NCBI RefSeq assembly: GCF_044324875.1
Contig: NZ_CP172185.1
DNA: 64,000 nt
Origin: Escherichia coli
GTDB taxonomy: Bacteria; Pseudomonadota; Gammaproteobacteria; Enterobacterales; Enterobacteriaceae
Strand: one strand, 5' to 3'
Below are positions 28,532-30,718 of this stretch, in pieces (position 1 is the stretch's first letter; every line of letters starts with the position of its first letter). The notes beneath the pieces were generated by a model. That model had not been told where the DNA came from. It did no database searches and saw nothing but the letters and a program-made list of their open reading frames with translations. The position numbers were made by a program, and so were the translations under genes.

Positions 28532-30718
28532 ATGATTACTCGTATTCCTCGTAGTTCTTTCTCTGCAAATATTAATAATACAGCCCAGACAAATGAACAC
28601 CAAACCCTGAGTGAATTGTTTTATAAAGAACTCGAGGATAAATTTTCTGGCAAGGAGCTGGCGACGCCTCTATTAAAAAGCTTCTCAGAGAACTGTAGAC
28701 AAAATGGTCGTCATATCTTTAGTAACAAGGATTTTGTCATTAAGTTTTCCACGTCCGTCTTACAGACTGATAAAAAAGAAATTACGATAATTAATAAAAA
28801 TGAAAACACGACACTCACTCAAACCATTGCTCCAATATTTGAAGAATACCTGATGGAAATTTTACCTCAACGCTCAGACGCTCTTGATAAACAAAAATTA
28901 AATCTAAAATCAGATAGAAAAGAAAAAGAATTTCCAAGAATTAAACTTAATGGTCAATGTTATTTTCCGGGGCGACCCCAAAACCGTATAGTATGCCGAC
29001 ACATTGCTGCACAATATATTAATGATATTTATCAGAATGTTGACTACAAACCCCATCAAGATGATTACTCTTCAGCTGAAAAATTTCTCACTCACTTCAA
29101 CAAAAAATGCAAAAACCAGACTTTGGCATTGATTTCCAGCCGTCCTGAGGGGCGTTGCGTTGCTGCCTGCGGTGATTTCGGACTAGTTATGAAAGCATAT
29201 TTTGACAAGATGGAATCAAATGGCATCAGTGTTATGGCAGCCATATTATTGGTGGATAACCATGCTTTGACGGCCCGGCTAAGAATAAAGAACACAACTG
29301 AAGGATGTACCCATTACGTGGTTTCGGTTTATGATCCAAATGTAACTAACGATAAAATAAGAATCATGAGCGAAAGTAAAGAGGATATTAAACACTATTC
29401 ACTGATGGACTTTATGAATGTAGATTATAGCCTCCTGAAATGGTCAAATGATCATGTTATTAACCAATCTGTTGCAATAATTCCAGCACTTCCGAAAGAA
29501 CAGCTATTGATGCTAAAAGGATCTGTGGATGAAATAACCCCTCCATTATCACCTGCAACGATGAATTTGCTAATGGCAATTGGTCAGAATCATCAACTTA
29601 CGCAACTGATGACTCAACTCCAGAAAATGCCAGAACTACATAGAACAGAAATGTTGACTGCCTATAATAGTATTAACCTCCCCGGTTTATATTTGGCTAT
29701 AAATTATGGTAATGCGGATATCGTTGAGACTATTTTCAATTCATTGTCAGAGCCAGGATATGAAGGGTTACTCTCGAAAAAAAATCTCATGCATATTCTG
29801 GAGGCAAAAGATAAAAATGGTTTTTCTGGATTATTTTTAGCGATATCACGTAAGGATAAAAATGTTGTAACCTCGATTCTGAACGCCTTACCTAAACTGG
29901 CCGCAACACATCATTTAGATAACGAACAAGTGTATAAATTCCTGAGTGCCAAAAATAGAACGTCCAGCCATGTTTTATACCATGTTATGGCGAATGGTGA
30001 TGCCGACATGCTGAAAATTGTTTTGGACGCGTTACCTTTGTTAATTCGCACATGTCATTTGACTAAAGAACAGGTACTCGATCTCCTGAAGGCAAAGGAT
30101 TTTTATGGTTGCCCAGGACTATACCTGGCGATGCAAAATGGACATAGCGATATCGTGAAAGTTATTCTCGAAGCATTACCCTGTCTGGCCCAGGAAATTA
30201 ACATTTCAGCTTCCGATATTGTAGATCTTCTGACCGCTAAAAGTCTTGCGCGCGACACGGGTTTGTTTATGGCCATGCAGCGCGGACATATGAACGTTAT
30301 TAAGACTATTTTTAACGCATTACCCACTCTGTTTAATACGTTTAAATTCGATAAAAAAAATATGCAGCCCCTCCTCCTGGCAAATAATTCTAATGAATAT
30401 CCCGGTTTGTTTTCAGCGATACAGCATAAACAACAAAACGTTGTAGAGACGGTTTATCTTGCTTTATCTGACCATGCACGCCTGTTTGGATTTACTGCTG
30501 AAGATATTATGGATTTTTGGCAACACAAAGCGCCACAAAAATACTCTGCCTTTGAGTTGGCTTTTGAATTGGATCACCGGGTTATTGCTGAATTAATCCT
30601 TAATACGATAAATAAGATGGCTGAAAGCTTTGGCTTTAAGGATAACCCTCGATACATTGCGGAGAAAAATTATATGGAAGCTTTACTCAAAAAAGCATCT
30701 CCCCATACCGTACGCTAA
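28532..30718 (+). CDS. arpA: Ankyrin-repeat protein ArpA (728 aa), AT-rich gene
   Basis: 728-aa ORF between iclR and aceK; repeated ...LY/FLAxxxGHxDIVxxILNALP... ankyrin-like units in the C-terminal half; noticeably lower GC than neighbours. Confidence 0.85.

Follow-up and report, generated by a model that had tools for sequence, protein, structure and literature searches.

The arpA-aceK overlap of Escherichia coli as the probable scar of an old islet insertion

We analyzed the convergent genes arpA and aceK in a window of 64,000 nucleotides from Escherichia coli (contig NZ_CP172185.1) and conclude that the 32-nt overlap of their 3' ends is very likely the scar of an old insertion and not a regulatory device. 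The overlap itself is already known, since the two genes are an annotated pair whose presence/absence polymorphism underlies a routine assay; what is new here is a base-level account of why arpA and aceK overlap, and the placement of the assay primer ArpA1.r inside the overlap and across the junction of the inserted islet.

Results

Terminal overlap of arpA and aceK

The genes at the locus are the following.

27391..28215, plus strand: iclR, 274 aa, convergent with aceK
28193-28214: weak terminator-like hairpin with a T-run, spanning the iclR stop
28532..30718, plus strand: arpA (also annotated espL4), 728 aa, stop TAA at 30716-30718 (ORF listing, Pfam, RefSeq names)
30687..32423, minus strand: aceK, 578 aa, stop TGA on 30687-30689 (ORF listing, Pfam, NCBIfam)
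30687..30718, both strands: convergent 3' overlap, 32 nt (ORF coordinates and sequence)

The initial annotation had stated that the last 32 nt of arpA and aceK are common to both genes in convergent orientation, and the coordinates bear this out to the base: the aceK stop TGA, read from the sequence, is the reverse complement of TCA at 30687-30689, and the RefSeq annotation of K-12 has the same 32-nt overlap (aceK 4218596-4220332, arpA 4220301-4222487). The K-12 pair (b4017/b4016), to which the Clermont 'arpA' marker belongs, has identical geometry (32 nt, 728 aa, 578 aa), and the window comes from another strain. No premature in-frame stop was present in either ORF according to the ORF listing, and thus the objection that the true arpA stop might lie upstream of the aceK stop fails, the arpA TAA being at 30716-30718. 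Within the overlap, the coordinates place aceK third codon positions opposite arpA second positions and arpA third positions opposite aceK second positions, and the wobble positions of the two genes never face each other. In strain 100248, a CGG to CGA change that is synonymous in aceK changes Thr to Ile in ArpA.

The arpA islet and its junctions

When the region was compared with arpA-less strains, arpA was found to lie on a single islet, the position of which is given below.

28223..30707, no strand assigned: arpA islet, ~2.49 kb (about 2,485 bp), GC 0.371, in place of 19 nt (GCCTCTGATTTATACGAAT) of the arpA-less allele

The two alleles are homologous from iclR through window position 28222 (…TGACTTTTTC) and again from ~30708-30709 (CGTACGCTAAA…), which places the right-hand breakpoint between aceK codons 572 and 573. 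The junction therefore divides the overlap into two parts: positions 30687-30707 (21 nt) are islet-specific DNA and code for AceK Y573-F578 plus the stop, and positions 30708-30718 (11 nt) are DNA common to arpA-less strains and code for the end of ArpA (..VR) plus its TAA stop, a triplet that the allele comparison also found in the arpA-less allele. Each gene takes its end from the opposite side of the junction. Correspondingly, the AceK tail reads ...SVRFV* (574 aa) without the islet versus ...SVRYGEMLF* (578 aa) with it. Five synonymous differences between the arpA+ and arpA-less E. coli alleles are clustered in the 30 nt of aceK before the junction, and this cluster could place the true breakpoint slightly deeper in aceK, although E. 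albertii shows as much divergence over those 30 nt and has at least one of the same variants. We also considered whether a donor aceK fragment had been imported together with the islet and rejected this, given this pattern in E. albertii and because no other species carries arpA beside aceK.

The islet contains arpA only. No integrase, tRNA or IS element was present in its ORF listing, and when terminal direct or inverted repeats and a target-site duplication were looked for at its ends, only short chance repeats were found. The deviating composition of the islet, its presence/absence polymorphism and the empty site in relatives are features of horizontally acquired islets. Indeed, arpA is clearly AT-richer than its neighbours, as the initial annotation had noticed (GC 0.379 and GC3 0.350 for arpA versus 0.536 and 0.615 for aceK; GC of iclR 0.532 and of the entire window 0.523; GC3 of the flanks 0.53-0.62 versus 0.35 for the islet gene). 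The islet flanks (28216-28531 and 30600-30720) showed no homology to the DNA between aceK and iclR in any of 80 species, and for this reason the insertion of arpA into a longer ancestral spacer was set aside.

Distribution of arpA and polarity of the change

The region was compared by megablast with 5,426 complete E. coli genomes, and junctions were counted with 140-nt probes as whole matches. The arpA-aceK junction was whole in 4105 of the 5426 genomes and the direct iclR-aceK junction in 1306 (~24%), including the type strain ATCC 11775. The region of the window strain has 97.5% identity to many E. coli genomes and at least 99% to only 145. In the arpA-less strains aceK is annotated with 1725 nt (574 aa), and its stop is 16 bp from the convergent iclR stop. 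Clermont and colleagues (2013) are said to have found arpA absent from phylogroups B2 and F. The frequency of the arpA-less junction (24%) would agree with such a distribution.

A scan for AceK in a collection of one genome per species gave 80 loci, one each from E. albertii and a strain of an Escherichia clade and the rest from 78 other Enterobacterales species; E. fergusonii and Escherichia clade I were not among them. By tblastn downstream of aceK, iclR was found in 79 of the 80 loci and arpA in none. E. albertii and Escherichia sp. MOD1-EC7003 are both arpA-less, with a 574-aa AceK ending in SVRFV* and a gap of 15-16 bp, and their junctions align with the arpA-less junction of E. coli with few substitutions, as vertical descent predicts. 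Because these two share the empty junction, none of the 80 loci has arpA and the flanks have no homologues, the arpA-less state is the ancestral one and arpA the insertion. The foreign origin suggested for arpA in the initial annotation is thus upheld by its absence beside aceK in 80 other species and by the direct iclR-aceK junction of about one quarter of E. coli.

Variation of the AceK tail and of the aceK-iclR neighbourhood

AceK is the isocitrate dehydrogenase kinase/phosphatase (Pfam AceK_regulatory and AceK_kinase; NCBIfam equivalog NF002804, 945 bits) and is near-identical over its full length to PDB 3LC6. The Pfam kinase-domain match stops at residue 564, and one deposited PDB AceK chain ends at residue 571. 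Over the 80 species the length of AceK ranges from 573 to 598 aa, with unrelated tails after a conserved RF[SC]xR[YF], and the extreme C-terminus is hypervariable across genera and appears to be unconstrained.

The neighbourhood of aceK is variable as well. The distance between aceK and iclR varies from -47 to +4777 bp, and the cargo in it differs between genera. In 17 of 79 other species the two genes overlap directly (4 nt in 14, 47 nt in 3), and in Trabulsiella, Kosakonia, Pectobacterium and Salmonella diarizonae aceK runs 4-37 nt into other inserted ORFs. As in arpA/aceK, the aceK stop in these Enterobacterales lies inside a convergent downstream gene, but the partners there are iclR, a CDP-diglyceride-synthase-like gene or a small conserved ORF (Salmonella diarizonae), whereas arpA as the partner was seen in E. 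coli only.

Comparison of the overlap with chance

As a chance model, convergent ORFs were abutted without spacer at random positions, with run-on lengths taken from the actual antisense sequences. The simulated overlap had a median of 120 nt and was 32 nt or longer in 93% of the trials, so the 32-nt overlap is no more than chance and is shorter than random abutment typically gives. Nor was the overlap conserved beyond coding need or across lineages, the junction being missing in 1306 of 5426 E. coli and arpA in the 80 other species. Since chance gives longer overlaps, the AceK tail varies freely and overlaps of aceK with its neighbours recur, we do not regard the overlap as special.

ArpA and its relatives

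ArpA matches Pfam Toxin_15 (PF07906, ShET2 N-terminal) at residues 130-379 with an E of 9.7e-97, followed by ankyrin repeats (Ank_2), and its RefSeq names are arpA, espL4 and "ShET2/EspL2 family type III secretion system effector toxin". Residues C155, H244 and D268 are invariant in an alignment of 18 sequences (ArpA and 17 distant homologues), and by their similar spacing they may correspond to C47, H131 and D153 of EspL. EspL was reportedly described by Pearson and colleagues (2017) as a cysteine protease that cleaves RHIM-domain proteins. ArpA shares the Toxin_15 match, the ankyrin repeats and the invariant Cys/His/Asp columns with the ShET2/EspL/OspD3 T3SS effectors, but it is only 23-24% identical to the plasmid-borne ShET2/OspD3-type proteins of Shigella and E. 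albertii, it has ~130 extra N-terminal residues before the Pfam match, and its gene is chromosomal, between core metabolic genes. It is also kept in strains such as K-12 without a working T3SS. ArpA is a ShET2/EspL-family protein with putative effector-like activity and secretion.

Full-length relatives of more than 50% identity were found in E. coli only (word-based protein search and exhaustive representative search), and the next relatives in the exhaustive representative search were 22-37% identical; as to a donor, this search gave nothing full-length above ~37% identity outside E. coli. The distant homologues are single-gene islets at unrelated chromosomal sites (three contexts, none at aceK), and one has a 26-nt overlap with a convergent neighbour of its own. 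A PDB sequence search with ArpA matched only designed ankyrin repeats and no solved relative of the Toxin_15 domain.

Among well-diverged E. coli alleles, the dN/dS of arpA is 0.11-0.19 (dS 0.08-0.15), and that of aceK in the same comparison is 0.01-0.03 (dS 0.11-0.25). The arpA value points to a coding gene that has long been maintained in E. coli and is not in decay. Alleles shortened in frame by 612 bp (524 aa) are common, and these retain the 32-nt overlap. Such purifying selection suggests that arpA is expressed in some condition, and its transcripts could meet those of aceK there.

Transcription and termination at the junction

The best promoter candidate upstream of arpA was as follows.

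28323..28351, plus strand: candidate arpA promoter, best sigma-70-like match (TTCACA-17-TATTAT, 10/12)

The 309-bp stretch upstream of arpA has a GC of 0.32, and its promoter-like site count is not above the shuffled expectation. A consensus scan found no intrinsic terminator within several hundred nt of the arpA or aceK stop, the nearest plus-strand terminator-like site being ~500 nt inside aceK, and when both strands of the overlap were folded against shuffles no hairpin was found (z -0.15 and -0.74), the arpA-less junction giving a like result. The initial annotation had reasoned that the overlap leaves neither gene room for a terminator of its own. The missing terminator and hairpin agree with the first part of this argument, but there is no support for the overlap as the cause: the stops of arpA-less strains are only 16 bp apart and aceK overlaps iclR directly in 17 of 79 species, and therefore aceK has no intergenic terminator there either. 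It had also been claimed that the two transcripts must be antisense to each other; full-length transcripts must be complementary over at least 32 nt, but the claim holds only where one cell transcribes both genes all the way through.

Published transcription data give little sign of such a situation, and the proposed antisense interference with the aceK 3' end is not supported by them. In BL21(DE3), where arpA is disrupted, no arpA expression was reported, transcription terminated prematurely inside aceK, the low level of AceK was attributed to this premature termination, and AceK was by far the scarcest aceBAK product (PMC5435950). In the portion of a K-12 3'-terminus table that was available, ends are given after aceA and at AceK-int and then none on either strand until metH (PMC10687069, Suppl. 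Data 2). In a published table of "promoter islands" associated with H-NS, arpA is included and carries a '+' in one column (PMC3661553). Historically, arpA was proposed to affect glyoxylate/acetate regulation (PMC3446290). A literature search on arpA (b4017) transcription or Rho dependence found nothing direct.

The arpA/aceK pair may also be compared with the overlapping bidirectional terminators of convergent E. coli genes that Ju and colleagues reportedly described in 2019. Like these, it is a convergent pair with adjacent or overlapping 3' ends, the full-length transcripts of which would overlap. Those sites, however, have a short intergenic space and a G+C-rich stem-loop flanked by A and U tracts, whereas in arpA/aceK the coding regions themselves overlap and no such stem-loop is predicted.

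Position of the phylotyping primers

The primers of the Clermont quadruplex PCR, in which ArpA1.r and AceK.f give the 400-bp arpA product (PMC10716328, PMC4322292), were located in the window.

30698..30717, plus strand: ArpA1.r primer site (TCTCCCCATACCGTACGCTA), one exact match with 0 expected, wholly inside the overlap and spanning the islet junction
31078..31097, minus strand: AceK.f primer site, exact match with 0 mismatches

The AceK.f/ArpA1.r amplicon is 30698-31097 (400 bp). Since ArpA1.r lies inside the overlap and AceK.f at 31078-31097, about 95% of the 'arpA' amplicon is aceK sequence. The arpA-less allele has 8 mismatches to the 20 nt of ArpA1.r, all in the first 14 nt, and matches its 3'-terminal 6 nt perfectly.

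Discussion

From these comparisons we propose the following origin of the overlap, which we hold to be an old insertion scar. The ancestor of Escherichia had iclR and aceK in convergent orientation with stops 15-16 bp apart, and its AceK ended in ...SVRFV*, as in the arpA-less relatives. The 2.49-kb islet with arpA, which in most E. coli stands in place of the 19 nt with its right edge between aceK codons 572 and 573, would have come by horizontal transfer into the lineage leading to most E. coli. Translation of aceK would then have been extended into islet DNA by six new codons (YGEMLF) to the first stop, and translation of arpA into the aceK antisense DNA, over its last 11 nt, to the pre-existing TAA; these two run-ons together would give the 32-nt overlap. 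The overlap would persist because neither tail is constrained, the AceK C-terminus being hypervariable across genera, and regulation would not require it. Those aceBAK transcripts that extend as far as the aceK 3' end probably stop diffusely, by a Rho-dependent or degradative route, in untranslated antisense-arpA RNA, and arpA is probably silenced or barely transcribed under normal conditions, so that antisense pairing would be at most incidental.

It might be argued instead that the pair is a functional cis-antisense module, in which arpA read-through into aceK shapes or lowers the aceK mRNA 3' end by RNA pairing (RNase III) or by polymerase collision and ties a foreign gene to control of the glyoxylate shunt. 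The overlapping ORFs with their complementarity of at least 32 nt, the lack of a terminator between them, the purifying selection that marks arpA as a real gene, the historical proposal on glyoxylate/acetate regulation (PMC3446290) and the scarcity of AceK among the aceBAK products (PMC5435950) would all fit such a module. We nevertheless consider it decidedly unlikely, as aceBAK operates without arpA in about one quarter of E. coli and in every one of the 80 other species, the structure of the overlap is not beyond shuffled controls, and 32 nt is shorter than random abutment gives; moreover, arpA was silent in BL21(DE3), where it is disrupted, and low AceK was ascribed there to termination inside aceK (PMC5435950), and nothing is listed between aceK-int and metH in the available portion of the K-12 3'-terminus table (PMC10687069). 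A more specific form, that in arpA+ E. coli H-NS derepression (e.g. in the host) lets arpA transcription enter aceK and lower full-length aceK mRNA by antisense pairing or polymerase collision, seems to us highly improbable. If it were true, arpA derepression would shift isocitrate dehydrogenase phosphorylation and glyoxylate-shunt flux, the control of the shunt would be phylogroup-specific, a lineage-specific link, absent from arpA-less lineages, would join an effector-like foreign gene to central carbon metabolism, and the old label of arpA as a 'regulator of acetate metabolism' would be revived. Least probable of all, and in our opinion scarcely credible, is a site of collision-type bidirectional termination, where both transcripts would end through a stem-loop common to them and through RNA polymerases that collide head-on: the pair is convergent without spacer and the mechanism is documented for convergent E. 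coli pairs, but it needs a nascent-RNA stem-loop (Wang and colleagues, bioRxiv 10.1101/2022.10.23.513370), and none is predicted in or around the overlap for either strand. It also needs activity from both promoters, and that of the arpA promoter is doubtful (PMC5435950).

A different objection concerns the direction of the change, since the arpA-aceK overlap could be ancestral for Escherichia and the 16-bp iclR-aceK junction a deletion that removed arpA and gave aceK a new tail in E. albertii, in the cryptic clades and in those E. coli lineages that lack arpA (reportedly B2 and F). The islet ends indeed have no insertion signature, and the RYGEMLF tail is closer than RFV* to RYGELKQAG / RYGNLQQAG of Buttiauxella/Klebsiella; RF[VTA]*-type tails, however, occur in Citrobacter too. 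This order of events would require that several species underwent one and the same deletion or passed it among themselves, while the substitutions that distinguish the arpA-less junctions are of species level, as vertical descent predicts; in addition, arpA is at the aceK site in no other genus (80 species loci), and the composition of the islet is foreign (GC 0.37 versus 0.53). We therefore consider a deletion very unlikely and keep to the insertion of the islet as the explanation of the overlap.

In practice, the Clermont 'arpA' band is an aceK fragment, and its specificity rests on a 20-nt primer at the insertion junction. For the organism, the C-terminus of AceK is not the same in arpA+ E. 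coli (578 aa) as in arpA-less E. coli (574 aa). More generally, arpA/aceK would be an example of an insertion that re-tailed both neighbouring ORFs and so created an overlap without selected function, which calls for caution in inferring regulation from such convergent overlaps.

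Alleles and relatives of arpA

A common arpA allele carries an in-frame internal deletion of 612 bp, which takes out much of the ankyrin region and leaves a protein of 524 aa as against 728 aa; the shorter form accounts for 4354 member sequences (cluster P0005) versus 11592 in the full-length cluster. This allele, found in strain 0H15, retains the identical 32-nt overlap with aceK. A similar arrangement was seen in a metagenome assembly (locus L089), where a distant ArpA homologue with 31% identity overlaps a convergent FAD-oxidase gene by 26 nt, another 3' overlap ending an ArpA-family gene, and is adjoined by a second Toxin_15 gene.

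Shortened and distant arpA genes with the convergent neighbour
L004 1733-3307, shortened arpA allele of strain 0H15
L089 3227-5461, plus strand, ArpA homologue of 744 aa
L089 5436-6845, minus strand, FAD-oxidase gene

The aceA-aceK spacer

The intergenic spacer between aceA and aceK (32424-32471) is 48 bp in the window strain compared with 182 bp in K-12 (L001 5415-5596), and is 124-313 bp in the other strains compared (L004, L005, L007); because it is so short here, BLAST matches were split in two pieces. The K-12 spacer holds REP elements, which have been associated with low aceK expression.

Phylotyping loci

Of the four loci used in Clermont phylotyping the window covers two, and it types as arpA+, yjaA-. 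yjaA is missing from the metA-rrn interval, where K-12 carries it; the only gene there in the window is yjaB, and no site for either yjaA Clermont primer turned up in the whole window, even with as many as 3 mismatches allowed. The phylogroup-E-specific arpA primers matched the window with 1 and 2 mismatches.

Features of the metA-rrn interval
35676-36605, metA
36606-37328, interval between metA and 5S rRNA
36762-37205, yjaB (147 aa), the sole gene between metA and the rrn operon
37329-37444, 5S rRNA

Gene content between aceK and iclR

What lies in the aceK-iclR gap varies across Enterobacterales (L008-L087, downstream of aceK). The gap's gene content was assigned by eye from translations, with examples at L023 6400-8625, L020/L022 about 6917-7529, L078 6296-8430, L080 2365-6861 and L010 6716-7150.

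Contents of the aceK-iclR gap, assigned by eye
Trabulsiella, Pectobacterium, an Enterobacter sp.: three-gene phospholipid-type cluster
Superficieibacter, Pseudocitrobacter: small ORF pair resembling a toxin-antitoxin module
Erwinia persicina: cyanase/carbonic-anhydrase/LysR-like genes
Serratia: edd-eda-gnt-like genes
Salmonella diarizonae, Klebsiella indica: conserved ORF of 137-144 aa

Junctions of the arpA islet

At the right junction (window 30708-30725 compared with L003 4997-5014, the arpA-less locus), the final 30 nt of aceK that arpA+ and arpA-less E. coli alleles share hold a cluster of five differences, a divergence of about 17% versus about 3-4% for the whole gene. All five are synonymous in aceK; over this stretch E. 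albertii and the arpA-less E. coli allele also differ at five positions. Just within the left edge, immediately after the T-run 3' of iclR, lies a perfect hairpin:

28228-28249, GGGCAGA GGCAATAT TCTGCCC, 7-bp stem

The corresponding place in the arpA-less allele reads GCCTCTG, the reverse complement of CAGAGGC. The finding may be due to chance or may be a trace of the insertion event.
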